Of a stretch of DNA of 64,000 nucleotides, positions 17,356-56,999 are shown in pieces; positions within the stretch are counted from its first letter, which is position 1; the number at the start of each line of letters is the position of its first letter. The notes beneath the pieces were generated by a model, which was given only the letters and a program-made list of their open reading frames with translations, made no database searches and was not told where the DNA came from. The DNA comes from a virus (Duplodnaviria; Heunggongvirae; Uroviricota; Caudoviricetes). The translations under genes and the position numbers were made by a program. The DNA lies in the IMG/VR virus record IMGVR_UViG_3300017650_000002; one strand, written 5' to 3'.

Positions 17356-17746
17356 CTGGACGATGATCAGTTCTTCGTTCGTTATACTTCATTTTATCCA
17401 CAAGGATCTTACCTGGGTCGATGCTGCTATCGTCATCCTGATAACGGCCAAGTGTATCACCGCTCCGAACCAGAACATCGATAAGTTCTGTCAATACACC
17501 CTTATATTGAGGTAGATGGTTGTCATTTGAATCCACACGAATAGCCTCTTGTGCCTCAAACACCTCATTAGCGATCAGTGTGACCTTTGTGTTTTGCTTG
17601 TGAACATCACTCCAATCATAACCATCCCACCAGCCACTCTCCAGTGCTGCCCTGTGTGTAAAGTACACAAGCGTATTTACAGCCTCACGAAGATCCTCAT
17701 AATCAAATTCGTCCATAAAGAACTTACCGTTCCCATCAATTGCCAT
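17321..17746 (-). CDS. MazG-like nucleoside triphosphate pyrophosphohydrolase (putative)
   Basis: All-alpha NTP-PPase-like pattern TLIANEVFEAQEAIR ... LTELIDVLV; start trimmed to MAIDG. Confidence 0.4.
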   Translation of the reverse strand: MAIDGNGKFFMDEFDYEDLREAVNTLVYFTHRAALESGWWDGYDWSDVHKQNTKVTLIANEVFEAQEAIRVDSNDNHLPQYKGVLTELIDVLVRSGDTLGRYQDDDSSIDPGKILVDKMKYNERRTDHRPDERKKPGGKRF

Positions 17747-18170
17747 ACATTTTCCTCCAAAATTTTTCAACAACTTCTTTTCCAACAGACATCTTACCAC
17801 GAATCAGATCCCTTCGGATGCATTCTTCAAGAGAGACTTGCATATAAATAGTATGCACCTTGTATCCCAAGCTTTCCAACTTACCAATCAGACTTGATGT
17901 CTTATTAGGGTCGCAGTAGGAAGCATCAGTAAAGATTAAATCATAACCCATCTTGACACACTCGTCAAAGTACTTCTTCCACAAGGACGTGACCATCTTT
18001 TCGTCCTTACTGTTATGGCTCCAAGTAGCCCAAGAGCCCCCTGGTTGAACAACTCCAAACCTAAAATTGTCTCGATTGATTTCTCGGACGGATTTGTACT
18101 CATTCATCACTTCTCGGGCATAAGTGGACTTACCACTGCCAGGAGGTCCAACAACAATCACAGCATCCAT
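17736..18170 (-). CDS. polynucleotide 5'-kinase-like P-loop kinase (T4 Pnk kinase-domain-like, no phosphatase domain)
   Basis: VVGPPGSGKSTYAREV ... INRDNFR matches T4 Pnk GCPGSGKSTWARE ... INRDDYR. Confidence 0.55.
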   Translation of the reverse strand: MDAVIVVGPPGSGKSTYAREVMNEYKSVREINRDNFRFGVVQPGGSWATWSHNSKDEKMVTSLWKKYFDECVKMGYDLIFTDASYCDPNKTSSLIGKLESLGYKVHTIYMQVSLEECIRRDLIRGKMSVGKEVVEKFWRKMYGN

Positions 18171-18355
18171 CACTCCTCCCACCCAAAATGATATTTCCAA
18201 CCTTGTGTTCCAAAGTAGTCATCTTGATCAGTCTCATCAAGCATAACTAGCAGTGCAAGGATCAAATGTCTAAACTCTTCACCTTTTGACCCATACTCAG
18301 ATGAAATCTTTCCAGTAAACATCAAAAATTCAGTGTAGTTCATATTATACCTCAA
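18170..18355 (-). CDS. hypothetical protein (61 aa)
   Basis: Small ORF. Confidence 0.3.
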   Translation of the reverse strand: MRYNMNYTEFLMFTGKISSEYGSKGEEFRHLILALLVMLDETDQDDYFGTQGWKYHFGWEE

Positions 18356-18392
18356 TTAATGGTTTCAGTGTCAACAACTTCACAGATATTTT

Positions 18393-18854
18393 TCAATCTT
18401 TCCTCACCTTTCCGTAAAACTTAAGTTCAGCAGATTCCCTGGCCGAAACAGCACAGTCAAAACTTTCAAACAACCCTAGGTGATGTTGCCTACCTTTGTA
18501 TGTTATTGAAGCTGCCCATTTACTAGCTCCTTTGTGCCAGTATACACCTGTTCTACCACTTGTGTTCTTATCTGACTTTCTTTTATTATAAAGTTGATCA
18601 GTTTGGTTAGACCATTTGCAATTCTCTTTGCAATAGTCACCATCCACGTCAACCCTATCTAAAGACATACCCTCTGGCCGATCTCCCATATCGTTGTGGA
18701 AATTTATAAAATCTCTCCATTCTTCACAAACTTTTATACCACGTCCACCATATCTGAAATATCCATCAAAGTTGGGATTGGTGCATCTCTGTATCATCAT
18801 TTCCCAACTTTTATAGGATGGTGTATCCGTTTTGAGATGTCTTACCCAACTCAA
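18393..18854 (-). CDS. homing-endonuclease-like protein (HNH_3-like N-domain + AP2 DNA-binding domain)
   Basis: YKSWEMMIQRCTNP...YGGRGIKVCEEW...RVDVDGDYCKENCKW plus AP2-like GRTGVYWHKGASKWAASITYKGRQHHLGLFESFDCAVSA; three paralogs in the window. Confidence 0.55.
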   Translation of the reverse strand: MSWVRHLKTDTPSYKSWEMMIQRCTNPNFDGYFRYGGRGIKVCEEWRDFINFHNDMGDRPEGMSLDRVDVDGDYCKENCKWSNQTDQLYNKRKSDKNTSGRTGVYWHKGASKWAASITYKGRQHHLGLFESFDCAVSARESAELKFYGKVRKD

Positions 18855-20158
18855 GATATAGTCTCCGTATCTATAGTTTCACAAATACCTTCAAGCACTT
18901 TGAAGGCGTAGCTCTTATTCTTCAAGAACCTAGTCTTTCCGTCATGCTCAATACGGATGATAATACCTTCCGAAATTTGAGTAGGGTTGATTAGGTCTTC
19001 AGTTAGAGAAGCTGGTCGTTCAGTTAGATTGTGCACCAAAGTGGTCAGAAAGTCTTGATCACCATTGTACACAATTTTATTAAAAACTTCCAGAGGACCA
19101 AGCAATCCACGTTGATTACACCAAGCATCCAACTCTTGTTGAGACATTTCCACAGTCTCTCCACCAACCGTCAGGCGAGTGATACGGTAAATATGGAAAC
19201 GATATTCATGCTCCTTACAACCATAGCTATAAGTCACAGTGTTTCCATACTTCTTAGTATACTCCTTATCCTTTAGGGCTGAAACATCGTGGTCAGGCAT
19301 AATAGGCTTCCCATTAGCATACCCAGCAATCTCACCATAAATGGTCATACCATATTCCATATGAGGCTTTAGAGATTCCAAAACTTCAAAACGGAAAGCT
19401 TCTGATCCATGATATCCTTCCTTGTTTGCATCACCAAGAATTACGTTTCGAGTACCTACAACATAGCTCTTCTTAGTTTCTGGAAAGATTGGAACAATTT
19501 TATTTACAAGCTTCTGGAATGCGTTAAGTTGTACAACCTCCGGCAGATAACCAACACGGAAAGAAGTGCCATGAACCTTGTGGTGGAATGACAGAATTGC
19601 ACCTTCAGGGATGGTCTGAACATAATGCTTAAATTGCTCTGAGTCCACATGCTTTGCAAAATCAGGAAACAGGTTAGCTTTACGAGATTTGTTCTGTCCA
19701 TTTGCAGCAGCAATCTGTTTCTTTGCAGCTTCTGAAATGTATTTCTGGCAAATCAGCTTCCCATTAAGTTCGGTAAACTGGTAACCAATGTCAAGCACAA
19801 AGCTTCCGACATATCCAATAGAATCAATCGACGAAAAGAATCCAGTTGACTTTACACCAAGAAATGGTTGTGCCCGGACACGACGTGAAGGTTCAAAGAA
19901 ACCCTTCTTAGTATTGTCCTTGTTGTCTTGTGAAGACCGGAACAAGTTATTCTCGCGGCAAAACTCCTCAGACAGCTGTAGGTCAACAGGAAATAGAATG
20001 CCGATATAACCAACACCCCAGTCCTTGCTTACAACAACTTGCTCACCCAGAACAGTGGCCAGATGGATACTATCTGCGGGATTCATTTCTCCAGTAGTCT
20101 TGTCCTTTACCATAATTGGGCTAACTGCGTCAATCTTTGCTACGATTGCTTGATGCAT
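18851..20158 (-). CDS. RNA ligase, Rnl2-like nucleotidyltransferase with N-terminal extension
   Basis: Motif I HHKVHGTSFRVG (cf. T4 Rnl2 EKIHGTNFSL), later EGIIIRIEHDGKTRFLKNKSYAFK (motif IV/V). Confidence 0.5.
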   Translation of the reverse strand: MHQAIVAKIDAVSPIMVKDKTTGEMNPADSIHLATVLGEQVVVSKDWGVGYIGILFPVDLQLSEEFCRENNLFRSSQDNKDNTKKGFFEPSRRVRAQPFLGVKSTGFFSSIDSIGYVGSFVLDIGYQFTELNGKLICQKYISEAAKKQIAAANGQNKSRKANLFPDFAKHVDSEQFKHYVQTIPEGAILSFHHKVHGTSFRVGYLPEVVQLNAFQKLVNKIVPIFPETKKSYVVGTRNVILGDANKEGYHGSEAFRFEVLESLKPHMEYGMTIYGEIAGYANGKPIMPDHDVSALKDKEYTKKYGNTVTYSYGCKEHEYRFHIYRITRLTVGGETVEMSQQELDAWCNQRGLLGPLEVFNKIVYNGDQDFLTTLVHNLTERPASLTEDLINPTQISEGIIIRIEHDGKTRFLKNKSYAFKVLEGICETIDTETIS

Positions 20159-20160
20159 AG

Positions 20161-20490
20161 TTATTTCCTCCAGTCCACAAGATCATCAAAATGTTTCTTC
20201 CTTTCGTCCCTGTTTTCTTCACTCATGATGCTTTCTGTTGGGACGATTGGCTTAACTTGTTCGTATTTAACCACAGGGTTACTGCCTCTGTCAACTGTTC
20301 TAAATGTAAGTCTTTGATACTGACCTACCCCTGAAAATACTAACGAGAAAGCAACTACAGTAATAAGTCCAAACTGTTCCGCGATGTGATTGAATTTACC
20401 AGTCTTCTTACACAGCCACAAGATAGCCATCAGAACTGCAAAGGGGGCAATTGCACCGACTAAGGTGTTGATAATGAAAGCTTCCAACAT
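20161..20490 (-). CDS. small membrane protein (109 aa, 2 TM + charged C-tail), possible NfeD-like partner of the SPFH protein
   Basis: Hydrophobic N-half; immediately downstream of the SPFH lipoprotein gene. Confidence 0.45.
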   Translation of the reverse strand: MLEAFIINTLVGAIAPFAVLMAILWLCKKTGKFNHIAEQFGLITVVAFSLVFSGVGQYQRLTFRTVDRGSNPVVKYEQVKPIVPTESIMSEENRDERKKHFDDLVDWRK

Positions 20491-20500
20491 CTATTTCTCC

Positions 20501-20532
20501 AAAAGAAAAGGGGCCGAAGCCCCTTGTTTTAT
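20501..20532. terminator. bidirectional intrinsic terminator AAAAGAAAA-GGGGC-CGAA-GCCCC-TTGTTTTAT
   Basis: Read directly. Confidence 0.6.
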
Positions 20533-21416
20533 CGTACTTGCATCTGACCTGCGATGGTGTCCAGCATCTTCATGGGCAAGAAGACCTTGTTGTCGCTTTC
20601 AGCGACCTTCTTCATGATTTCAAGTTCTTGATACTTGACGTATTGAGGGGTAATTGATTCACCCAAAATACGATTCACCTGTGCATCAGCTTCAGCCTTT
20701 TCAACGTCAACCTTACGCTGCATTCGAGTTTCCTGTAGGGTACGTTCCAGCTGAGTCTTGGATAGTTCAAGCTGAGCTTGCTCCGTACGAATCATCTCTG
20801 CACGCTTTGCTGCATTCTCCTGTGACTCCACAATAATCTTTGGATACTGTAGGTTAGACAGGCCAATGAACCGGACAGAGAATGGCGTCTTCTCTTGGAT
20901 GCTCTTTGCCAACTTAGCTGACAATTGCTGGTTTACAGACTCTAGATTTGACGCAATATCATTAATCTGATATTGAGACAGGAATTCTCGTGCCTCAGCC
21001 AAAATAATTTGCTTCGCATAAGTCTTGTAAATGGTTGAGGTTGGAATCCAACGTAGGCCATTCTCATGCTGAGGAGTGATACGAGCATACATCTCATCGT
21101 ACTTGTCCTCTCGCAGGGTTAGAGTGGCTTGCAGTGAGAAGGTCATGTTCAGACGATCCTTTGGCATGAATAGGGTCATCTCTTCTGTCACAGCCGAATC
21201 TGCTACGGACAATAGAACAACTTCCTCACAAACCTGACCAGGGAATCCACAAAAATCTAGTCGGAACTTAGAAGTTTGCTTGAAACCATCCTCATACCCA
21301 TGCTTGGTCATGATCTTGCCAACGTATGCGCTTGGGATTTCTACTTGCTTACCGCAAGCAGCCAAACCAACAGCCATAGCAGCTACGGCCAGGAACTTAA
21401 AAACACGTTTAAACAT
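20529..21416 (-). CDS. SPFH (band-7/prohibitin/HflC-like) domain lipoprotein
   Basis: Signal peptide with lipobox LAAC; coiled SPFH-like core (RTEQAQLELSKTQLERTLQETRMQRKVDVEKAEADAQVNRILGESI). Confidence 0.55.
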   Translation of the reverse strand: MFKRVFKFLAVAAMAVGLAACGKQVEIPSAYVGKIMTKHGYEDGFKQTSKFRLDFCGFPGQVCEEVVLLSVADSAVTEEMTLFMPKDRLNMTFSLQATLTLREDKYDEMYARITPQHENGLRWIPTSTIYKTYAKQIILAEAREFLSQYQINDIASNLESVNQQLSAKLAKSIQEKTPFSVRFIGLSNLQYPKIIVESQENAAKRAEMIRTEQAQLELSKTQLERTLQETRMQRKVDVEKAEADAQVNRILGESITPQYVKYQELEIMKKVAESDNKVFLPMKMLDTIAGQMQVR

Positions 21417-21460
21417 TAATTTCTCTCCTTCTGTTAAAAGACTATAAACCTACAGACAAC

Positions 21461-21724
21461 CTATTCTGTATCTTTATATAAATTCAAATTGGACTTGAGC
21501 CAGATAAGGTCTGTGCACTCAACAAAAGTTTCAATATCAACTGCATGAAACCTACGTCCCGCTAGACGTTCAAAAATTTCATCTCTGCCAATAAACATAA
21601 CCTGATGAGATTTCAAGTCTACAACACTCTCCACAAGCCTAAAAACTCCATTGTTTAGCTTGGCGTAGTCTCCCGCTCTAGACCTTGCAACATGTCTGTT
21701 TTCGTAAATCTTAACGACTAACAT
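21461..21724 (-). CDS. hypothetical protein (87 aa)
   Basis: ORF on the - arm. Confidence 0.4.
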   Translation of the reverse strand: MLVVKIYENRHVARSRAGDYAKLNNGVFRLVESVVDLKSHQVMFIGRDEIFERLAGRRFHAVDIETFVECTDLIWLKSNLNLYKDTE

Positions 21725-21824
21725 TTAGTCCTCCTGATCGTGATGCGTCATCATACCACGACTACTTACAAAAGACAATACTTCGTCTAAGTGCCATGGC
21801 TCCATCTTGTCATCCATTCTGGCG

Positions 21825-22370
21825 TCAATCTTTATGATATTTGCCATAAGATTCACCAAGGTTTTCTAGTTTATCTATTAAACTATCCCTAAAAATTGAA
21901 GCCATTTTAAATGCCTCTGATTCCCCATATTTTTCTATGGAGAACCACTTTGTGGTTCTTCCACCACTCGGGGATTTAGCAGAAGCTACGTAGTGAGTTA
22001 GCACACCATTAGTCCTCCCTAAATGCACCCCAACCTTTCCAGTGGAATTATCTTTCCTCTTTCTGGTATTTCTACTTTGGGCTTCCTTCAAGATCCAGCA
22101 ACAGTTGCCTTTACAGTAGTCGTCATCTACGTTAATCCTCTCAAGAGTTGCACCTTCAAAGTATTCTGCACCCATCTGCTCTAAAAATCCTTGGAATTTT
22201 TCCCACTTTGGGTCATAGGATATACCTCTCCCTCCATAGTTACAGTAGTACTTACTGTTTTTGTTGTTGCATCTCTTCTTCATATCGGCCCAGCTTTCGT
22301 AGATCTTACTACCTCTGAGTCCGTGCCTAAAGTTTGGGTTATTTGACCCATTTTGATTTAAATTTGTCAT
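21825..22370 (-). CDS. homing-endonuclease-like protein (HNH_3-like + AP2 domain), paralog of 18393 and 31383
   Basis: IYESWADMKKRCNN...YGGRGI...ERINVDDDYCKGNCCW and C-terminal AP2-like segment. Confidence 0.5.
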   Translation of the reverse strand: MTNLNQNGSNNPNFRHGLRGSKIYESWADMKKRCNNKNSKYYCNYGGRGISYDPKWEKFQGFLEQMGAEYFEGATLERINVDDDYCKGNCCWILKEAQSRNTRKRKDNSTGKVGVHLGRTNGVLTHYVASAKSPSGGRTTKWFSIEKYGESEAFKMASIFRDSLIDKLENLGESYGKYHKD

Positions 22371-22373
22371 ACT

Positions 22374-22940
22374 CTACCTATGATGGTCCCTCTCTACGAA
22401 ACTTCTGGTCTTCATATATTCTTCAATCTCCTCTAGGCTAAATGGTAGCATATGATTGTCTTTTCTGTTATCAATACCACAGTCAAAAATTTTTCCGCCA
22501 AGGTCAATTAACGACCCGTGGCAGTGTCCGTGTAGCATCCAACTTCCTTTGTCCATCCTATTCCAAGATAGCAGGGGAAAATGGCACATAATAATCTCTT
22601 GTTTGATGCCATTGCTAAGAGTTACTGAGATTTGCTTTAAATCTGAGATTGATTGGAAGACTTCTTTATGGTGTTGTTTTCTAAGTTGTGTGTGATTCCC
22701 CTTAATTAAATGTTTCTGACCATTAAGTCTGCTTATGTTGCTATAACCAACTTCTCTATCACCTAAACATTCGTCCCCAAGGATATATACTACATCGCCC
22801 TTACTAACAACTGTGTTCCAAGCTTCTATCAGAAGCTCGTCATGTTCTTGAATAGTTTCTCCACTACGGGTTTCTCTGCAAAATTCTAAAAGTCTTGCGT
22901 GCCCTAGGTGTAGATCCGATGAAAACCAAGTATTACTCAT
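22374..22940 (-). CDS. calcineurin-like metallophosphoesterase (Ser/Thr or nucleic-acid phosphatase)
   Basis: WFSSDLHLGH, GDxxxxG, GNH and GHxH motifs; start trimmed to MSNTWF. Confidence 0.6.
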   Translation of the reverse strand: MSNTWFSSDLHLGHARLLEFCRETRSGETIQEHDELLIEAWNTVVSKGDVVYILGDECLGDREVGYSNISRLNGQKHLIKGNHTQLRKQHHKEVFQSISDLKQISVTLSNGIKQEIIMCHFPLLSWNRMDKGSWMLHGHCHGSLIDLGGKIFDCGIDNRKDNHMLPFSLEEIEEYMKTRSFVERDHHR

Positions 22941-23096
22941 TATACCTCCAAAAGAATTGCATCCTCCAGTACCTGAAGTGCCCACACGGGGTCCTCAAAT
23001 ACACCCCCAGTACTCACTAACAGTTTAAATGAGTCAACATCATAACCCTTTTCTCTTAGGGCGTCAACCACCTCCAGAAGGTCTTTTACCTTAAGC

Positions 23097-24792: not shown

Positions 24793-24984
24793 TTAAAAGT
24801 CTGGGTATTCGGTCGATTCGGATACAACTTCGTCCCTAAGCATCAGCTTTATTTTCACGAAGCTTGTATCGTAGTATGCATATGCTTTGTGGAATTCTAG
24901 TTGTACAGAAAGATTTTCTCGAATAAAATCTTCGATCAAATCTCTAACTTCATTCTCAAGATCATGTCCTAGACTTTCCATCAC
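24793..24984 (-). CDS. hypothetical protein (63 aa)
   Basis: Small acidic ORF. Confidence 0.35.
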   Translation of the reverse strand: MMESLGHDLENEVRDLIEDFIRENLSVQLEFHKAYAYYDTSFVKIKLMLRDEVVSESTEYPDF

Positions 24985-25550
24985 CCCTCCTTGTAAAATA
25001 TGTGACCGCCGATGATTTTAACCACTTCCAAGTCTTTTGTCCACTTTGGAGGCTTTATCCTGTCTGAATGATACCACTTAGCCCCTGGCACAGGATTTTC
25101 AGAAATCCCGAAAACAGCATCATACGCCTCTTTATAAGCTAAGTCAAAGTCTTTCTTCGTAGGCTCTGACTGTTTGTGCTTATCCTGTCGGTAGGAAAAT
25201 TGGTACTTCTGTTCAACCACTCCACGGATAGTATTCGGCCAGCCCTTGTCCTTAACCCGTTCAAGGATTACATAAGCCACGGCACGCATCCCAATAGGTC
25301 CCTCCCCACGAGCTTCATACACTAAAGCTTCAGCAAGCCCTCCACACCACCGATGCTCGAACACACAGTTATGATAAGGAGGGTCTAAATTCAGTATGGA
25401 GCCTAGCTTCTGTGGATTTATCTGAAATACCTTGACATCTGAGTCTTTAACCCTCCAATCTGTGTAAGGAGTCCAGAAAGAAAATACAACAATCAGTGTT
25501 ATGAGTATTACAGCAGTGTAAGCTCCAAGCTTATCAATCAATTTTCTCAA
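24981..25550 (-). CDS. SleB-like cell-wall hydrolase with N-terminal membrane anchor
   Basis: Hydrolase_2-like core LAEALVYEARGEGPIGMRAVAYVILERV preceded by a TM helix. Confidence 0.5.
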   Translation of the reverse strand: MRKLIDKLGAYTAVILITLIVVFSFWTPYTDWRVKDSDVKVFQINPQKLGSILNLDPPYHNCVFEHRWCGGLAEALVYEARGEGPIGMRAVAYVILERVKDKGWPNTIRGVVEQKYQFSYRQDKHKQSEPTKKDFDLAYKEAYDAVFGISENPVPGAKWYHSDRIKPPKWTKDLEVVKIIGGHIFYKEG

Positions 25551-30881: not shown

Positions 30882-30957
30882 TGCGGGAGGGAGGCAAGGT
30901 GTTCTCACGACTCTCATAAGGTCGCCTAGCTGGGTTCGATTCCCAGTCCCGCAACCA
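30882..30957 (+). tRNA. tRNA-Met/Ile2 (anticodon CAU)
   Basis: Manual cloverleaf: acceptor TGCGGGA/TCCCGCA, D GAGG/TCTC, anticodon stem CGACT/GGTCG with loop CTCATAA, T-arm CTGGG-TTCGATT-CCCAG, encoded CCA. Confidence 0.6.
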
Positions 30958-31211
30958 GCGTTGCTCTGGGAAATCCCATCCGGGTTAGTACAATCGTCAG
31001 AGCTAGGAAATCAGCAAACACCGGTAGTGCTGAGGACGACAATAGCTTCCGGGAAGCTCTAGTAATGCCGATTTGTCTTAGTGGCGTTCCTGCTTCACTT
31101 TGAACGACAGTACTAGAGTTAGGGCAGGGTCTTTAAGGCACAGGATCAGTGCTAAAGCCCTCTTCCTCCAGGATAGAGCCTAATAGGCCCCCGGAATAGG
31201 GGCAAGAATTT

Positions 31212-31285
31212 GCAGGTAAGCACAAGGTGTGCCGCAGGCCTTCCAAGCCTCGCAGAGTACGGTTCGATTCCGTCTACCCGCTCCA
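31212..31285 (+). tRNA. tRNA-like sequence, possibly tRNA-Gly(UCC), with non-canonical short D-arm (may be degenerate)
   Basis: Good T-arm (GGTTCGATTCC) and CCA; anticodon loop CTTCCAA; acceptor 6/7 paired; D-loop only 3 nt. Confidence 0.3.
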
Positions 31286-31292
31286 TTTTAAA

Positions 31293-31368
31293 GCTGTTGT
31301 AGCTCAGTTGGCAGAGCGCTTCACTTGTAATGAAGATGTCGTGAGTTCGATTCTTACCAACAGCACCA
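31293..31368 (+). tRNA. tRNA-Thr (anticodon UGU)
   Basis: Perfect cloverleaf: acceptor GCTGTTG/CAACAGC, D GCTC-AGTTGGCA-GAGC, anticodon stem CTTCA/TGAAG with loop CTTGTAA, T-arm GTGAG-TTCGATT-CTTAC, CCA. Confidence 0.85.
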
Positions 31369-31382
31369 GATAAGGAACTACA

Positions 31383-32039
31383 ATGGCTAAGCCAAAAAAT
31401 AAGTGGGAAGAAGGCCAGATGTTGGAGCTTATTGGGTTTGACCATTTTTACGTAAAACCTTCTGATGGCAAGAAGGAAAAACGGTTTAAATTCCTGTGCC
31501 ATTGTGGAAATACTGTGGTGACTTCAAAGAGAAAGGTTGAGACAGGTCACACAAAATCATGCGGATGCCTTAAGGTGACTCATGGTATGAAGAGCCATGA
31601 ACTGTATAATGTGTGGAACCTTATGCATCAAAGGTGCAAAAATACTAAATTTAGTAAGTACAAGAACTATGGAGGCCGTGGCATACGTGTGTGCGACGAG
31701 TGGAGTAATCCAATAACAGGATTTAGTTCATTCCTTTCCCACGTAGGAGAAAGGCCAGGGGATGAATATACACTGGAACGTGTCGATGTTGACGGGGACT
31801 ACTGTCCTGGAAATGTGGCGTGGACAAATGATAACTCCTTACAAGTCTTTAATCAGACTGTTAGGGAAAATAACACCTCAGGTAAAACTGGGGTGAGTTA
31901 CGACAAGTCTTGCGGTAAGTGGTGTGCCACAATTAGCAAGGGAGGTATCTCAAAGAAGCGTAAGTTTTCTACTTTCGATCTTGCCTCTGAACAGAGGGAT
32001 GCCTGGGAAATCGAATTTTATGGATTTTTAAAGAAATGA
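31383..32039 (+). CDS. homing-endonuclease-like protein (Zn-finger N-term + HNH_3-like + AP2 domain)
   Basis: LYNVWNLMHQRCKN...YGGRGIRVCDEW...ERVDVDGDYCPGNVAWTN and AP2-like GKTGVSYDKSCGKWCATISKGG...FSTFDLASEQRDAW; starts 15 nt after tRNA-Thr. Confidence 0.6.
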   Translation: MAKPKNKWEEGQMLELIGFDHFYVKPSDGKKEKRFKFLCHCGNTVVTSKRKVETGHTKSCGCLKVTHGMKSHELYNVWNLMHQRCKNTKFSKYKNYGGRGIRVCDEWSNPITGFSSFLSHVGERPGDEYTLERVDVDGDYCPGNVAWTNDNSLQVFNQTVRENNTSGKTGVSYDKSCGKWCATISKGGISKKRKFSTFDLASEQRDAWEIEFYGFLKK

Positions 32040-32455
32040 CACAACAGAATTCATCGTGGGTAAAGGGAGGAGGGTCCCCAAATCCTTCAGGAAGGCCTCC
32101 AGGCCAAATTAGTAAGCCTATTTCTCCTCTCCGTAAGACTTTGAACAAGCTGAAGGAGCTAGAAGATCAGGCCCTAGAGAATATCTCTGCTGTAGTGAAT
32201 GGGACAAAAATTGTCCTGGATGGCAAGGAAGAGGAAGTGGATAAGCAGAAGCTTGAAACTTCTAAGTGGGTAGTAGGCTCAATTGCCTCCCTAACTCGTG
32301 CTGCACTACAAGATGAGGAACTACGTCTGAAGATCAAGATGGGAAATCTGGAACCAAGCCCAGATAGTCCAACATCAAAACAAGAGGACGAGGATGAAGG
32401 AAAAGAAGTTAAGGCTTCATTCTCCCTGTCTCTTGTAAAAGACACGAAAGAGTAA
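32036..32455 (+). CDS. DUF5681-like protein (possible small terminase-like subunit), low-complexity acidic C-terminus
   Basis: N-terminal WVKGGGSPNPSGRP resembles the WxxGQSGNPxGRP signature of DUF5681 proteins that accompany large terminases; ATGA overlap with the upstream endonuclease gene. Confidence 0.4.
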   Translation: MTQQNSSWVKGGGSPNPSGRPPGQISKPISPLRKTLNKLKELEDQALENISAVVNGTKIVLDGKEEEVDKQKLETSKWVVGSIASLTRAALQDEELRLKIKMGNLEPSPDSPTSKQEDEDEGKEVKASFSLSLVKDTKE

Positions 32456-32532
32456 CTATCCGTAGGAAAGTCAGGTAATCCACTTCATTTGGAATGAAGA
32501 GACCGCTGGATCGAAGCCAGCCGGGTAGACCA
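32456..32532 (+). tRNA. tRNA-Pro (anticodon UGG)
   Basis: Acceptor CTATCCG/CGGGTAG, U8A9, anticodon stem CTTCA/TGAAG with loop TTTGGAA, T-arm GCTGG-ATCGAAG-CCAGC (A at position 54 is unusual), CCA. Confidence 0.6.
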
Positions 32533-32537
32533 TATAT

Positions 32538-32620
32538 GGGCGAGTGGTGTAATGGTAGCCACGGTGGTCTTAGAAGCCACTGCTTTTAGCGTGTCAGTTC
32601 GAGTCTGACCTTGCCCACCA
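32538..32620 (+). tRNA. tRNA-Leu (anticodon UAG), class II with long variable arm
   Basis: Acceptor GGGCGAG/CTTGCCC, anticodon stem GTGGT/GCCAC with loop CTTAGAA, 12-nt variable arm with GCT/AGC stem, T-arm GTCAG-TTCGAGT-CTGAC, CCA. Confidence 0.75.
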
Positions 32621-32626
32621 AAATAA

Positions 32627-32702
32627 GTTGCTATCGTCTAAAGGTTAGGACTACAGGTTTTCAACCTGTCAATCGCGGGTTCAAGTCCCCGTGGCAACTC
32701 CA
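32627..32702 (+). tRNA. tRNA-Glu (anticodon UUC)
   Basis: Acceptor GTTGCTA/TGGCAAC, D GTCT/GGAC, anticodon stem ACAGG/CCTGT with loop TTTTCAA, CCA; the T-stem has only 3 clean pairs (GCGGG/CCCCG). Confidence 0.55.
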
Positions 32703-33095
32703 AATATAGCTTCAGAGTGTTAAAGGACACACGCATACCTGTCACGTATGAATGAGGGGATCGTTACCCCTTGAGGCTGCCAAGATATCCGGCTTTAGTC
32801 CGGTTGAATTCACCTGGACCGTTATAGCTGCGGCTATTTCCAGGCGAGACAGATGATTCGCTACCGTCTGTCTCACTGCTAGGCCCGTTGGGACTCTTCC
32901 CTTATTGGGCCATCCGCTACCTGAGAGTAGCAGCCTCGTGCAATGCGAGGCTTAACACGAAGCTGGTAATCGTGGTGTGGAGAGGATGTCACTTTATGGA
33001 CATCGGCGGCTAGGGCAGGCAGAGTGGCCCTAGCCTAATACAACACGGTGGAGGAATCCTTAGGGATGTCCTCCATTCTTTATTTGAGGATCAAT

Positions 33096-55811: not shown

Positions 55812-56411
55812 ATGGAGATACCCATGGATAAATCAACTTTAGCCAAATGGCTTGCTGCGGGCACCATAAGTATTGGTGGAGCTCTCTCCGTGGGGAGTCT
55901 TATTGAACCTCACGAAGGGTCTGTTAAAAACAAACAAGGAATGCACATAGCATATTTAGATGCTGTAGGCATTCCTACAGTTTGCTATGGTCAGACTGGA
56001 AAAGACTTATATGAAAGAACTATCAGAATAGGGATGCCACCTTTCTCAGAGCAAGAATGCACAGAGATGCTTCTGAAGACTGTAGTTAAGCTTGAGAGAG
56101 AAATCGACAGGCTGGTGAAGATAGACTACAAAAGTGACTACCAGAAAGCAGCTTTGATTTCTTTTGTCTATAACGTTGGGGTTGGCAATTTCTCTTCATC
56201 TACCCTCCTTAAAGATCTTAACAGGGGGGAGCATGATCTTGCATGTGATCGACTTTCTGATTGGGTTTATGCCAAAAAGAAGAAGCTTGGGGGCCTTGTG
56301 AAGAGAAGGGAGGAGGAAAGACAAATGTGTCTAGGCAATGTTCCCCAAGATGTGAGGATGACATATACAGAGATTGTTAACTTGGTTAAAGAAACTGCGG
56401 AGAAGAAATGA
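55812..56411 (+). CDS. SAR endolysin (GH24 lysozyme with N-terminal signal-arrest-release helix)
   Basis: Gly/Ala-rich weakly hydrophobic N-helix (LAKWLAAGTISIGGALSVGSLI) followed by EG...YLD.VGIPT.CYGQTG lysozyme catalytic region. Confidence 0.65.
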   Translation: MEIPMDKSTLAKWLAAGTISIGGALSVGSLIEPHEGSVKNKQGMHIAYLDAVGIPTVCYGQTGKDLYERTIRIGMPPFSEQECTEMLLKTVVKLEREIDRLVKIDYKSDYQKAALISFVYNVGVGNFSSSTLLKDLNRGEHDLACDRLSDWVYAKKKKLGGLVKRREEERQMCLGNVPQDVRMTYTEIVNLVKETAEKK

Positions 56412-56809
56412 CTGTAGCCGTGAGAAATATTCTTCTATCACTGATAGTGTCTCTGAGTTTACTTAGCCTAGTTCTGTATGTTGCCAATCTAAGGCAAGAC
56501 AGGGACATAGTTAGTTTTAAGAGCAGAGTGTCAGAACTTTCCCAAGAAAACTCCATCCTCAACAGCAGGGTAGCCACATTAAAAATGATGTGGTTTGCTA
56601 CTAATGTAGCCTCTAAAGAACAGCAAGAGGGTTTGAGTAAGAAAGAGCAGACTGAAAGAGAAACTATGGCGGAGTTGGAAAACCTGCCAAAAAACTTAGG
56701 AGCTAGTGATGCTAAAGATGATCAGTCTGATGTTCTTCCTGCTGATGTTGTCAGGGTGCTACAGCGGCACTGTGATCAGATACGTGGAAAAACCTGTGAC
56801 AATCCCTGA
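56408..56809 (+). CDS. i-spanin (Rz-like)
   Basis: N-terminal TM helix + coiled-coil periplasmic domain; overlaps the endolysin stop. Confidence 0.5.
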   Translation: MTVAVRNILLSLIVSLSLLSLVLYVANLRQDRDIVSFKSRVSELSQENSILNSRVATLKMMWFATNVASKEQQEGLSKKEQTERETMAELENLPKNLGASDAKDDQSDVLPADVVRVLQRHCDQIRGKTCDNP

Positions 56810-56999
56810 ACATCTCATGAGGGATCCTTGTGAAGTGGTGGGTCCAGGCAAGACAGTTACATCATTGAAAAGGGGGTATGTCAAAAATACTTCTTGTGCA
56901 GGTAAATACGCAGAGGTTTTAAATGGGATTCGTACTTACAATAGGAAAGTATCTGACGAAAATACTGAGTTGGTTGAAGGTGAAGATAATGCAAGATGA
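56706..56999 (+). CDS. o-spanin (Rz1-like lipoprotein), overlapping i-spanin in another frame
   Basis: Signal peptide with lipobox LSGC; Pro/Cys-containing short periplasmic domain; genetic architecture typical of overlapped spanins. Confidence 0.5.
   Translation: MMLKMISLMFFLLMLSGCYSGTVIRYVEKPVTIPEHLMRDPCEVVGPGKTVTSLKRGYVKNTSCAGKYAEVLNGIRTYNRKVSDENTELVEGEDNAR

Follow-up and report, generated by a model that had tools for sequence, protein, structure and literature searches.

Why should a virulent phage of roughly 92 kb encode an SPFH (Band-7) lipoprotein and, next to it, a small protein with two transmembrane (TM) segments, and do the two gene products belong together? SPFH proteins are universal membrane scaffolds whose roles in bacteria are poorly defined. 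They have been on record in phages since 2006 (PMC1524935), and published accounts from 2020 and 2026 call their role in phages unclear. The stretch of DNA analyzed, referred to below as the window, comprises 64,000 nucleotides of the phage genome, and the features discussed are collected in Table 1. A first-pass annotation of the window had described the locus as "not a standard phage function," which is an overstatement since PHROG 200 already lists this family among phage proteins and tblastn identified homologues in 139 GenBank phage records, sharing 23–51% identity across 80% or more of the length.

Table 1. Positions of the SPFH gene, its partner gene, and associated features in the window
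Feature	Positions	Strand	Basis
SPFH/Band-7 lipoprotein gene, 295 aa, PHROG 200 member	20529..21416	(-)	ORF, Pfam, PHROG, AF2, Foldseek
Predicted lipoprotein signal peptide, residues 1–21, with lipobox L-A-A-C at its end	21354..21416	(-)	Sequence, PROSITE-type pattern
Predicted SPFH alpha/beta core, residues 24–190, including Cys56/Cys63	20847..21347	(-)	AF2 secondary structure, Pfam
Predicted long helix (residues 193–254) and second helix (257–273)	20598..20840	(-)	AF2, Foldseek
Intrinsic-terminator-like hairpin AAGGGGC-UUCG-GCCCCUU, then UUCUUUU	20497..20525	(-)	Terminator scan, folding
Partner gene, 109 aa: predicted TM1, K-rich loop, TM2, disordered linker, C-terminal helix (EENRDERKKHFDDLVDWRK)	20161..20490	(-)	ORF, KD scan, AF2
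Endolysin, i-spanin, and overlapping o-spanin (typical lysis set)	55812-56999	Opposite to the pair	

The product of the longer gene, which has an AAGGAG ribosome-binding site 8 nt 5' of its start, is by profile matches and structure prediction a true SPFH protein. Pfam Band_7 (PF01145) matches residues 64–217 with 36.5 bits, above the gathering score of 23.6 bits, and the same domain is carried by all 86 of the 86 database homologues. PHROG 200, annotated "lipoprotein," matches residues 1–291 with an E-value of 7.2e-42. The AF2 model has a pLDDT of 83.5 overall and of 82–95 over most of the helical region 193–273, and shows a 62-residue helix followed by further helices after the SPFH core. 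Foldseek searches with this model returned prohibitin, HflK/C, stomatin, erlin, and QmcA with E-values between 5e-12 and 1e-6 across some 290 aligned columns, including full-length alignments to the cage subunits 8rrh, 7vhq, 7wi3, 9z7u, 9vvg, and 8z5g, and the TM-scores were alike, at about 0.5, for HflK/C, prohibitin, stomatin, and erlin. The two modeled helices are likely counterparts of the wall-forming and cap-forming helices of solved SPFH cages, and monomer predictions of this conserved helical region suggest that the protein may assemble into a ring or cage on the membrane. An NCBIfam search gave nothing significant for this protein, HflK and HflC models included, or for the partner, PADLOC-DB v2 contained no defense family matching either protein at E-values up to 1, and a PHROG 11227 "protease" match was weak (E 1e-3). 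A scan of IMG/VR viral contigs with the SPFH protein gave no confirmed relative. The lipoprotein signal with its LAAC lipobox and the SPFH core had both been proposed in the first-pass annotation, and both hold up; the generic coiled coil considered there as the outcome counting against an SPFH assignment was not seen, and the fold is a genuine SPFH fold.

At the N terminus of the SPFH protein (MFKRVFKFLAVAAMAVGLAAC), K/R falls within residues 1–7, the h-region is uncharged, and the LAAC lipobox has its cysteine at position 21. The sequence thereby passes a lipobox test that asks for K/R in the n-region, hydrophobicity in the h-region, and the pattern [LVI][ASTG][GA]C within the first 35 residues. 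The protein is predicted to be a bacterial lipoprotein of the Lgt/LspA type with the lipid at Cys21. A lipobox is present in all 18 homologous phage loci, and in an alignment of 28 homologues (A1) Cys21 is conserved in at least 90% and Gly22 in 100%. The same alignment contains two further invariant cysteines, Cys56 and Cys63. Across the 18 loci both are present in 13, neither in 5, and a single one in none, and this joint presence or absence fits a disulfide in an oxidizing compartment, which points to the periplasm. The SPFH domain is thus likely to be exported and to face the periplasm. Residue +2 after the lipobox cysteine is Gly in 12 of the 18 loci and Ser, Val, or Phe in the others. According to the enterobacterial sorting rule, a lipoprotein with Gly and not Asp at +2 is sent to the outer membrane, and by this rule the lipid anchor would lie in the outer membrane, making a co-planar complex with an inner-membrane partner harder to picture.

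The partner gene is preceded by a GGAG ribosome-binding site. A KD scan of its product gives hydrophobic helices at residues 6–24 and 36–54 followed by a 55-residue tail, and the AF2 model, of low confidence (pLDDT 59, three-sequence alignment), places helices at 2–30, 35–62, and 91–108 with no β-strand; the earlier description of a 109-residue protein with two TM helices followed by a tail is upheld. The N terminus is devoid of K/R in 18 of 19 partners, whereas the short inter-helix loop holds 1–7 K/R, and from this charge distribution the N terminus and the tail are both predicted to lie outside, in the periplasm. Pfam, PHROG, NCBIfam, and PADLOC gave no family match for the window partner. 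An NfeD-like OB domain, as the stomatin-NfeD comparison of the first-pass annotation would imply, was not found: PF01957 (NfeD) did not match the window partner or 11 other partners at E-values up to 1, a PDB profile search did not return YbbJ/NfeD, and the low-confidence model is all-helical. Pfam matches to the partners were weak and scattered over unrelated families, chiefly transporters and membrane DUFs. The name FxsA (PF04186), given to the KVP40 partner by its depositors, was rejected because no partner matches PF04186 at E-values up to 1.

Homology among the partners themselves was equally faint. Nothing outside the partner's own cluster emerged from an exhaustive HMMER search of 1.84 billion representatives, hhalign of window-type against KVP40/T5-type partners gave a probability of 25%, and an HMM built from the C-terminal part across partners was not significant. 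When the window clade was omitted from the HMM, the window partner came out on top among 688 ORFs, yet with an E-value of 0.27. An iterated partner profile reached only L006 above threshold, and below threshold 12 of its 20 top matches among 1284 ORFs were positional partners. The C-terminal motifs NRDERKKHFDDLVDW and NREDRDAHFKSLTDY are matched by BLASTP with an E-value of 1e-4, and an N-terminal h-h-N-h-h motif, defined after viewing the data, occurs in 18 of 32 partners compared with 26 of 572 background ORFs. Because homology between partner clades is not statistically demonstrable, the partner "family" rests on position and architecture. At the level of sequence comparison the partner is an orphan, and it evolves very fast.

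Position and architecture are nonetheless highly consistent. A two-TM ORF of 90–160 residues is adjacent to the SPFH gene in all 18 phage loci, which represent T4-like, T5-like, PAK_P-like, phiKZ-like jumbo, Busanvirus, and Plateaulakevirus lineages, and its placement varies between directly downstream, set apart by one inserted ORF, and upstream with a 4-nt overlap. A partner of the same architecture is found in at least 16 of 19 bacterial loci, with carriers among the Gamma-, Beta-, and Alphaproteobacteria, Verrucomicrobiota, Phycisphaerae, and Bacteroidota. Two bacterial contexts were inspected, and both are non-prophage chromosomal: the Methylotuvimicrobium pair, whose SPFH protein is 54% identical to the phage protein, has VWA/M48/PP2C neighbors, and the Litoribacillus pair lies near OsmC and phosphatidylserine decarboxylase genes. 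By comparison, only 2 of the 67 window ORFs of 80–170 residues (about 3%) contain two or more TM segments. The small two-TM gene is a real and conserved partner of the SPFH gene, and the operon logic therefore resembles that of SPFH-NfeD. The proposed stomatin-NfeD likeness is thus retained for the presence of a conserved small membrane partner beside the SPFH gene and lost for the identity of that partner. Neither the examined GenBank records of homologues nor the consulted papers on phage SPFH proteins mention a pairing with a small membrane protein.

The two genes are on the same strand and are separated by 38 nt. A terminator scan identified one good hairpin with a T-run at 20508–20525, usable on both strands, which occupies the gap separating the stop codon of the SPFH gene from the start codon of the partner gene. 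It folds with −14 kcal/mol (z = −2.27 relative to shuffled sequence), and the regions 5' of the SPFH gene (z = −0.69) and 3' of the partner gene (z = +1.61) fold no better than shuffled sequence. Of 16 related loci, 11 have a similar hairpin just after the stop codon of the SPFH gene. The hairpin in the window is probably leaky, as the space ahead of the partner ribosome-binding site is too short to hold a promoter. At the other end, the partner stop codon (20161–20163) lies 2 nt from the ATG of a gene for a 435-residue RNA ligase (18851–20158), and the GGAGG ribosome-binding site of the ligase gene sits within the 3' end of the partner gene. The claim that bidirectional terminators bracket the pair as an autonomous unit is contradicted by this arrangement. 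Overall, the first-pass observation is confirmed in part and its interpretation supported in part. An intergenic terminator together with tight coupling of partner and RNA ligase is harder to reconcile with an obligate 1:1 complex than with stoichiometry that is unequal or regulation that is partly separate.

The pair is placed in the replication and nucleic-acid-repair arm of the genome and not in the structural/lysis arm, with genes for a UvrD helicase, a metallophosphatase, the RNA ligase, an AAA_33 kinase, endonuclease VII, and a DNA ligase in its neighborhood. The RNA ligase is of the Rnl type (PF09414) and not RtcB. No tRNA-like gene adjoins the pair, and the nearest tRNA genes are 10 kb away. 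A literature search for the transcript timing of phage SPFH genes gave nothing usable. The combination of a lipoprotein and a small membrane protein brings to mind lysis proteins, and two such assignments were considered. A two-component spanin (Rz/Rz1) pairs a small outer-membrane lipoprotein with an inner-membrane protein that has a single TM segment and a periplasmic coiled coil, both with genes in the lysis region, whereas the lipoprotein here is a 295-residue SPFH fold and its partner is predicted to have two TM segments and a disordered tail. A class II holin is a small two-TM protein with both termini inside and its gene next to that of the endolysin, whereas the termini of the partner are predicted outside, and the partner is conserved beside SPFH genes in bacterial chromosomes. 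Both were rejected in view of the lysis cassette at 55.8–57.0 kb, and a lysis role for the pair is unlikely given that these lysozyme/spanin genes are about 35 kb away.

The pair is best explained as a two-gene envelope module in which a periplasm-facing SPFH lipoprotein scaffold and an inner-membrane two-TM partner would condition the envelope of the infected cell. This explanation draws on analogy, and in our estimate its chances of being right and wrong are about evenly balanced. As in solved SPFH cages, the lipoprotein would use its long helices to form an oligomeric ring or dome on a periplasmic membrane leaflet, with the lipid anchor in place of the N-terminal TM helix of HflK/C, prohibitin, and erlin. 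The partner would be the resident membrane component of the SPFH complex, its TM hairpin positioned in or beneath the enclosed membrane patch and its C-terminal amphipathic helix docked on the SPFH oligomer. It may do for the phage SPFH protein what NfeD does for QmcA, as an unrelated protein at the opposite membrane face. The hairpin after the SPFH gene could potentially cause the scaffold to be made in excess of the partner. The pair would then be a mobile host-type accessory module that keeps the infected cell's envelope stable or compartmentalized up to programmed lysis. More generally, a lipoprotein-SPFH gene with a two-TM neighbor may constitute an undescribed periplasm-facing two-component SPFH system, in which a fast-evolving helical membrane protein replaces NfeD. 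Such a system would be mobile, would extend over at least five bacterial phyla and at least six lineages of large virulent phages, repeatedly inside phage RNA-repair gene sets, and would let phages install an SPFH microdomain of their own in the host envelope. We put this generalization forward tentatively, its probability falling a little short of even.

The patchy, mobile distribution of the pair over phages, chromosomes, and a plasmid and the very fast evolution of the partner suit exclusion or defense at least as well as they suit maintenance of the envelope, and the patchy spread combined with the identity to the Methylotuvimicrobium protein suggests horizontal transfer. In an exclusion reading, the pair would be made early and would block DNA entry or envelope penetration by other phages, the bacterial copies serving as an anti-phage barrier. 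The exclusion proteins known so far are membrane proteins or lipoproteins made early, an example being Llp of T5 (PMC9586334). The predicted envelope location and the position in a non-structural arm are consistent with such a role, and the neighbors of the pair in Methylotuvimicrobium (VWA, PP2C, AAA_33) and Litoribacillus (SbcC-like ATPase, NinG-like) look like those of a variable region or a conflict region. Exclusion proteins are, however, usually receptor- or route-specific, and the module is common to myo-, sipho-, and podophage lineages with different receptors and injection devices. We also know of no exclusion protein that resembles a 295-residue cage-type scaffold, and the PADLOC result offers no support. 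Exclusion or envelope defense is therefore considered unlikely, although several features of the locus would suit it.

The Foldseek matches include the HflK/C-FtsH complexes 7vhq, 7wi3, and 9paw, raising the alternative that the periplasmic SPFH oligomer mimics HflK/C by binding the periplasmic domain of host FtsH, or another envelope protease, and alters the turnover of membrane or regulatory substrates. The phage protein is predicted to be on the same membrane side as HflK/C, its KVP40 homologue was first annotated through the HflK model TIGR01933, and the faint PHROG 11227 match would point in the same direction. However, the NCBIfam HflK/HflC models (TIGR01933/TIGR01932) are unmatched, and the structural likeness to HflK/C is no better than that to prohibitin, stomatin, or erlin. 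The 64-kb window contains a single SPFH gene and no K/C pair, the SPFH protein is without an N-terminal TM helix, and the conserved companion in both phages and bacteria is a two-TM protein and no protease, all of which renders HflK/C mimicry improbable.

The small size of the partner, its two TM segments, and its charged C-terminal tail are generic holin-like features and would also be compatible with a holin- or viroporin-like channel formed by partner oligomers and restrained or timed by an excess of SPFH scaffold, as stomatin does with ion channels. PDB entry 9zd2 shows stomatin bound to a channel, and the terminator after the SPFH gene would hold the partner sub-stoichiometric. Against this, T5-like phages and the partner-upstream clade have the two genes overlapping or directly abutting, suggesting near-equal synthesis; the endolysin/i-spanin/o-spanin cassette is separate from the pair; the predicted N-out/C-out topology differs from that of class II holins; and the pair is present in ordinary bacterial chromosomal contexts. 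A gated channel is accordingly given a low probability. Lower still is that of the pair being the membrane arm of a phage RNA-repair kit, in which a Band-7 protein is linked to an RNA ligase as in RtcB loci. The metallophosphatase, RNA ligase, and AAA_33 kinase genes flank the pair, the same gene set surrounds it in another order in T5-like Aeromonas phages, an RNA ligase gene is nearby in PAK_P5 and Boevelstad, and the literature contains Band-7 genes by RtcB, with PaFlo8 in the rtc locus of P. aeruginosa. A periplasmic SPFH domain would nevertheless be out of reach of cytoplasmic RNA repair enzymes, no RNA ligase gene was seen in the examined flanks at 12 of the 18 phage loci or in either bacterial context inspected, and the linkage may merely mirror a shared early-gene island. 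That the two genes are unrelated neighbors, adjacent by chance or inherited synteny, is disfavored to the point of being barely credible: non-significant partner-clade comparisons and the terminator between the genes would agree with it, but adjacency recurs throughout the phage loci and in at least 16 of the 19 bacterial loci, across phyla and despite order inversion and ORF insertions, over a low background of two-TM ORFs of that size.

As the locus adds one further member to an already catalogued family, its value lies in the comparative pattern and not in the single window. If the pairing is functional, it would offer genetics and cryo-EM a compact SPFH system of two genes at the periplasmic side, with a type of SPFH partner other than NfeD. 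It would be testable in cultivable PAK_P-type Pseudomonas phages, KVP40, and T5-like Aeromonas phages, and would reveal what a virus gains from carrying its own membrane scaffold.

Comparison with known systems places the envelope module among several related arrangements. Its closest relatives are the phage proteins of PHROG 200, for example KVP40.0339, PAK_P5 gp042, Acidovorax phage ACP17 ASD50492, AhSzq-1 gp024, and the Band-7 ORFs of RB43, 44RR, and Aeh1, which like the window protein have a lipobox, a length of 283–303 residues, and an adjoining two-TM gene. The best protein identity among them is 50.7%, and megablast of positions 19000–23000 against GenBank phages returned no close DNA relative. 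Band-7 proteins encoded beside the RtcB RNA ligase (Burroughs and Aravind 2016, as cited in bioRxiv 10.1101/312249) and the SPFH protein PaFlo8 in the P. aeruginosa rtc locus (PMC13086221) share with the phage pair the position of an SPFH gene beside RNA-repair genes, a likeness known from published descriptions, and differ in that the phage ligase is of the Rnl type and no tRNA-like gene adjoins the phage pair. An HflK/C-like protein, PM0222, is encoded by a P. multocida prophage (PMC9872710). HflK/C in complex with FtsH (7vhq, 7wi3, 9paw) matches the model over the full length with TM-scores up to 0.54 and forms its cage on the periplasmic face, but consists of a K/C heterodimer with a TM helix, in contrast to the single phage gene with its predicted lipid anchor, for which no protease link was found. 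The prohibitin and erlin structures (8rrh, 9o9z, 9vvg) are the best Foldseek matches (E 5e-12), and their cages are on the non-cytoplasmic membrane face, as predicted for the phage protein; they differ in being eukaryotic, organellar, TM-anchored hetero-oligomers of two paralogues with 12–15% identity to it. In E. coli QmcA-YbbJ and other SPFH-NfeD operons (Tan et al. 2024, as cited in PMC13086221), an SPFH gene is likewise accompanied on the same strand by a gene for a small membrane protein with N-terminal TM segments and a soluble C-terminal part, and QmcA (PDB 8z5g) is a structural match to the phage SPFH protein (Foldseek E 1.6e-8). In contrast to YbbJ, the phage partner has neither an OB fold nor PF01957, and whereas QmcA is TM-anchored and faces the cytoplasm, the SPFH protein of the phage is predicted, as a lipoprotein, to be on the periplasmic side. 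The phage pair may thus be regarded as a variant of the known SPFH-partner operons, with a role proposed by analogy to them.

The SPFH protein (295 aa) begins with MFKRVFKFLAVAAMAVGLAAC, in which three basic residues among the first seven are followed by an uncharged hydrophobic stretch and a lipobox, L-A-A-C, with the cysteine at position 21, satisfying the PROSITE-type lipoprotein pattern. Pfam Band_7 matches it with 36.5 bits, above the gathering score of 23.6. An AlphaFold2 model built from an alignment of 28 homologues (mean pLDDT 83.5) shows an alpha/beta core (residues 24–190), a 62-residue helix (193–254), a second helix (257–273), and short C-terminal helices. Comparison of the model with the PDB by Foldseek, over approximately 290 aligned columns, gave prohibitin (8rrh, E = 5e-12) as the best match, with further matches to HflK/C (7vhq, 7wi3, 9paw), stomatin (9z7u, 9oh9), erlin (9vvg), and QmcA (8z5g). 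The TM-scores to these proteins are all about 0.45–0.55, a PDB sequence-profile search reached E values of 0.002 (prohibitin) and 0.005 (stomatin) at best, and no SPFH subfamily is clearly the nearest. The protein is a genuine SPFH lipoprotein, as the first-pass annotation had proposed from its signal peptide, LAAC lipobox, and SPFH core. Because the predicted helices match those of cage subunits, the region described there as coiled corresponds to the wall and cap segments of SPFH proteins that form cages and is not a generic coiled coil.

Gly-22, Cys-56, and Cys-63 are invariant in the alignment of 28 homologues, and Cys-21 is present in at least 90%. Among 18 loci, Cys-56 and Cys-63 occur together in 13 and are both missing in five, with no locus retaining a single one. 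This all-or-none pattern is that of a disulfide and thus supports exposure to the periplasm; combined with the signal peptide, it suggests that the SPFH domain faces this compartment.

Features of the window discussed in this section
Feature	Coordinates	Strand	Remarks
AAA_33 kinase	17736-18200	-	
AP2/HNH-type homing-endonuclease-like ORF	18393-18854	-	
RNA ligase, 435 aa	18851-20158	-	
Partner, 109 aa	20161-20490	-	ORF; Shine-Dalgarno GGAG 7 nt ahead of ATG
Intergenic hairpin and T-run	20508-20525		-14 kcal/mol, z = -2.27
SPFH lipoprotein, 295 aa	20529-21416	-	ORF; Shine-Dalgarno AAGGAG 8 nt ahead of ATG
AP2/HNH-type homing-endonuclease-like ORF	21825-22370	-	
Metallophosphatase	22374-22985	-	Identified via the orthologue in the related locus L005
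SleB-type cell-wall hydrolase	24981-25550	-	Pfam Hydrolase_2, E 3e-22
Six tRNA genes	30882-32782	+	Met-CAT, Thr-TGT, Pro-TGG, Leu-TAG, Glu-TTC, Asp-GTC
Lysis cassette	55812-56999	+	
Lysozyme-type endolysin	55812-56411	+	
i-spanin	56408-56809	+	N-terminal TM helix and coiled coil
o-spanin	56706-56999	+	Other frame, overlaps i-spanin; lipobox LSGC

Hydropathy places hydrophobic helices at residues 6–24 and 36–54 of the partner, followed by a 55-residue polar tail, in agreement with the two TM helices and soluble tail originally described. An AlphaFold2 model from three sequences (pLDDT 59, low confidence) contains helices at 2–30, 35–62, and 91–108, with residues 63–90 disordered. As this model has no beta strand, it lends no support to an OB fold within the tail. 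Searches of Pfam, PHROGs, NCBIfam, and PADLOC returned nothing significant for the window partner, NfeD (PF01957) matched none of 12 partners from different clades, and a PDB profile search with the partner did not find NfeD/YbbJ. The partner is not NfeD; of the stomatin-NfeD-like pair suggested by the first-pass annotation, the conserved small two-TM neighbour stands, whereas the NfeD identity does not. FxsA (PF04186), noted by the KVP40 depositors, was also rejected (0 of 12 partners). Judged by sequence, the partner is an orphan, with two relatives found in a word-indexed search and its own cluster alone when 1.84 billion representatives were searched exhaustively with HMMER.

In all 18 phage loci examined, the SPFH gene has a neighbouring ORF of this architecture. 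These partners are 90–160 aa long, with an N-terminus lacking K/R, two TM helices joined by a short K/R-rich loop, and a polar tail of 50–78 residues, often with a C-terminal helix that bears a basic-x-x-F-acidic motif. The partner is directly downstream in the window, L005, L006, Ep020, ACP17, 4L372XY, KVP40, 1.081.O, VspSw_1, AhSzq-1, L009, and L010, is separated by one inserted ORF in Boevelstad, L007, and L008, and is directly upstream in RVTF4, PAK_P5 (gp041), HHBS36_1, and KPN8; in HHBS36_1 and KPN8 its overlap with the SPFH start is 4 nt. Since at least two TM segments are found in just 2 of 67 window ORFs of 80–170 aa, the adjacency is far beyond chance, and its persistence through changes in gene order argues for functional coupling. 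L008 (3842–5448) carries an additional 424-aa opposite-strand gene and an 82-aa ORF between the two genes; both are absent from the near-identical L007, indicating that an insertion split the module while the partner was retained.

The pairing extends to bacteria. Of 19 loci obtained from bacteria or MAGs by scanning one genome per species, at least 16 have the same neighbour, including Methylotuvimicrobium buryatense (SPFH protein 54% identical to that of the window), Thiopseudomonas, several Comamonas, Lampropedia, Litoribacillus, Achromatium, another gammaproteobacterium, Cyclobacteriaceae, Verrucomicrobiota, and Phycisphaeraceae MAGs, and a Paracoccus plasmid. The three exceptions comprise a truncated contig, a tandem second SPFH gene, and a locus where no partner was seen. 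In a Bdellovibrionales MAG (L034, 4919–6001), the SPFH lipoprotein gene is followed, in place of the two-TM partner, by that of a longer SPFH lipoprotein paralogue of 360 aa, a tandem arrangement reminiscent of HflK/HflC. Neither of the two bacterial contexts checked is a prophage: the pair adjoins VWA, M48 peptidase, PP2C, and nucleoside phosphorylase-like genes in the first, and OsmC and phosphatidylserine decarboxylase genes in the second.

Partner clades are weakly linked in sequence, with an hhalign probability of 25%. In a leave-out HMM search the window partner ranked first of 688 ORFs (E = 0.27), BLASTP against the Methylotuvimicrobium partner gave E = 1e-4 over the C-terminal 23 residues, and positional partners made up 12 of the 20 best sub-threshold matches of an iterated profile among 1284 ORFs. 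An N-terminal h-h-N-h-h motif, defined post hoc, is present in 18 of 32 partners and 26 of 572 background ORFs. Because these links are weak, partners of different clades are termed positional and architectural equivalents; they are probably fast-evolving homologues.

The pair had been described as bracketed by bidirectional terminators, which proved incorrect. The scan found a single strong hairpin with a T-run, inside the 38-nt gap between the two genes, whereas neither the 44-nt spacer on the upstream side of the SPFH gene (z = -0.69) nor the junction after the partner (z = +1.61) folds better than shuffled sequence. The partner's TAA lies 2 nt from the ATG of the RNA ligase gene, whose ribosome-binding site, GGAGG, falls within the partner's coding end. 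With its sole strong hairpin intergenic and the partner abutting the RNA ligase gene, the pair does not form an insulated unit. Expression of the partner either depends on read-through of the hairpin or is partly uncoupled from that of the SPFH gene. Immediately after the SPFH stop codon, 11 of 16 loci (L001–L017) have a GC-rich hairpin, usually with a T-run behind it, irrespective of the gene that comes next. This points to a conserved end or attenuator of the SPFH transcript; such a hairpin would favour a scaffold more abundant than the partner. The two genes overlap or are spaced by 2–11 nt in T5-like phages as well as some others.

By analogy with its structural relatives, the lipoprotein may form a ring or cage. 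The charge distribution of the partner suggests that its tail is also periplasmic, and the partner could be the cage's resident membrane component, docking via its C-terminal helix and filling the role of NfeD on the other side of the membrane. The residue after the lipobox cysteine is Gly in 28 of 28 aligned homologues and in 12 of 18 loci. Asp at position +2 is the enterobacterial retention signal, and lipoproteins without it are predicted to reside in the outer membrane. Under this enterobacterial rule, the SPFH lipoprotein, which lacks Asp+2, would be anchored in the outer membrane, and the partner tail would then have to span the periplasm. The favoured role in the phage is accessory envelope conditioning, stabilising or compartmentalising the envelope during infection. 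We consider the overall reading, a periplasmic SPFH cage with a membrane partner that conditions the envelope, about as likely to be right as wrong, its structural part being much firmer than the biological role. The pair might instead act in superinfection exclusion or envelope defence, which is rather unlikely. Action on FtsH or another protease in the manner of HflK/C is distinctly improbable; no NCBIfam HflK or HflC model matches the SPFH protein. A small channel gated by the SPFH protein is more doubtful still.

The minus-strand arm carrying the pair also encodes a UvrD-type helicase, a metallophosphatase, two AP2/HNH-type homing-endonuclease-like ORFs, RNA ligase, an AAA_33 kinase, endonuclease VII, and DNA ligase. 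The metallophosphatase, RNA ligase, and kinase form an RNA-repair-type set (17736–22985) that encloses the pair. A functional link of the pair to RNA repair we regard as very improbable. T5-like Aeromonas phages (AhSzq-1 and L010) have this set around the pair too, in another order, and an RNA ligase gene is nearby in PAK_P5 and Boevelstad. Band-7 genes have been reported to adjoin RtcB and to occur within the Pseudomonas aeruginosa rtc locus. The AP2/HNH-type paralogues (42% identity over 102 aa) flank the SPFH/RNA-ligase block and look like recent mobile insertions, as they are missing at those positions in the close relative L005, whose SPFH protein is 86% identical. The tRNA genes are located where the minus-strand arm switches to the plus-strand arm. 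A spanin or lysis-cassette role for the pair was rejected because the phage has its own endolysin and spanin genes 35 kb away on the opposite strand. The SleB-type hydrolase is a second muralytic enzyme, separate from this cassette; its gene adjoins that of the UvrD helicase in the early/replication arm and is also present in the relative L006.

The window represents a new phage: megablast of positions 19000–23000 gave no match among GenBank phages, and the portal protein shares 51% identity with its counterpart in Pseudomonas phage vB_PsaM_M1 and about 41% with those of PAK_P-type phages. An identical SPFH protein is recorded on a 92,018-bp metagenomic contig, and the gene order recurs in three metagenome samples. 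The SPFH function had been thought non-standard for a phage, yet the protein matches PHROG 200 ("lipoprotein", E = 7e-42), and tblastn found homologues (23–51% identity) in 139 GenBank phage records, labelled "hypothetical protein", "lipoprotein", or "SPFH domain / band 7 family protein". They include KVP40-type vibriophages, PAK_P/KPP10-type and phiKZ-like jumbo Pseudomonas phages, T5-like Aeromonas and Vibrio phages, Klebsiella jumbo phages, and Acidovorax phage ACP17, and BFVD holds many Band-7 models from phages and giant viruses. SPFH ORFs of T4-like phages were tabulated in 2006 (PMC1524935), and papers of 2020 and 2026 call the reason for SPFH proteins in phages unclear (PMC7760394; PMC13239085). 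The locus is a new member of an already catalogued phage family, and the SPFH gene alone is nothing unusual in large phages infecting Gram-negative hosts. A limited literature search found no description of the SPFH/two-TM pairing, and a two-gene module strictly conserved in both phages and bacteria is a useful finding that can be tested. The pair is a variant of SPFH-partner operons, with a lipid anchor in place of the TM helix, a partner other than NfeD, and a predicted periplasmic orientation.
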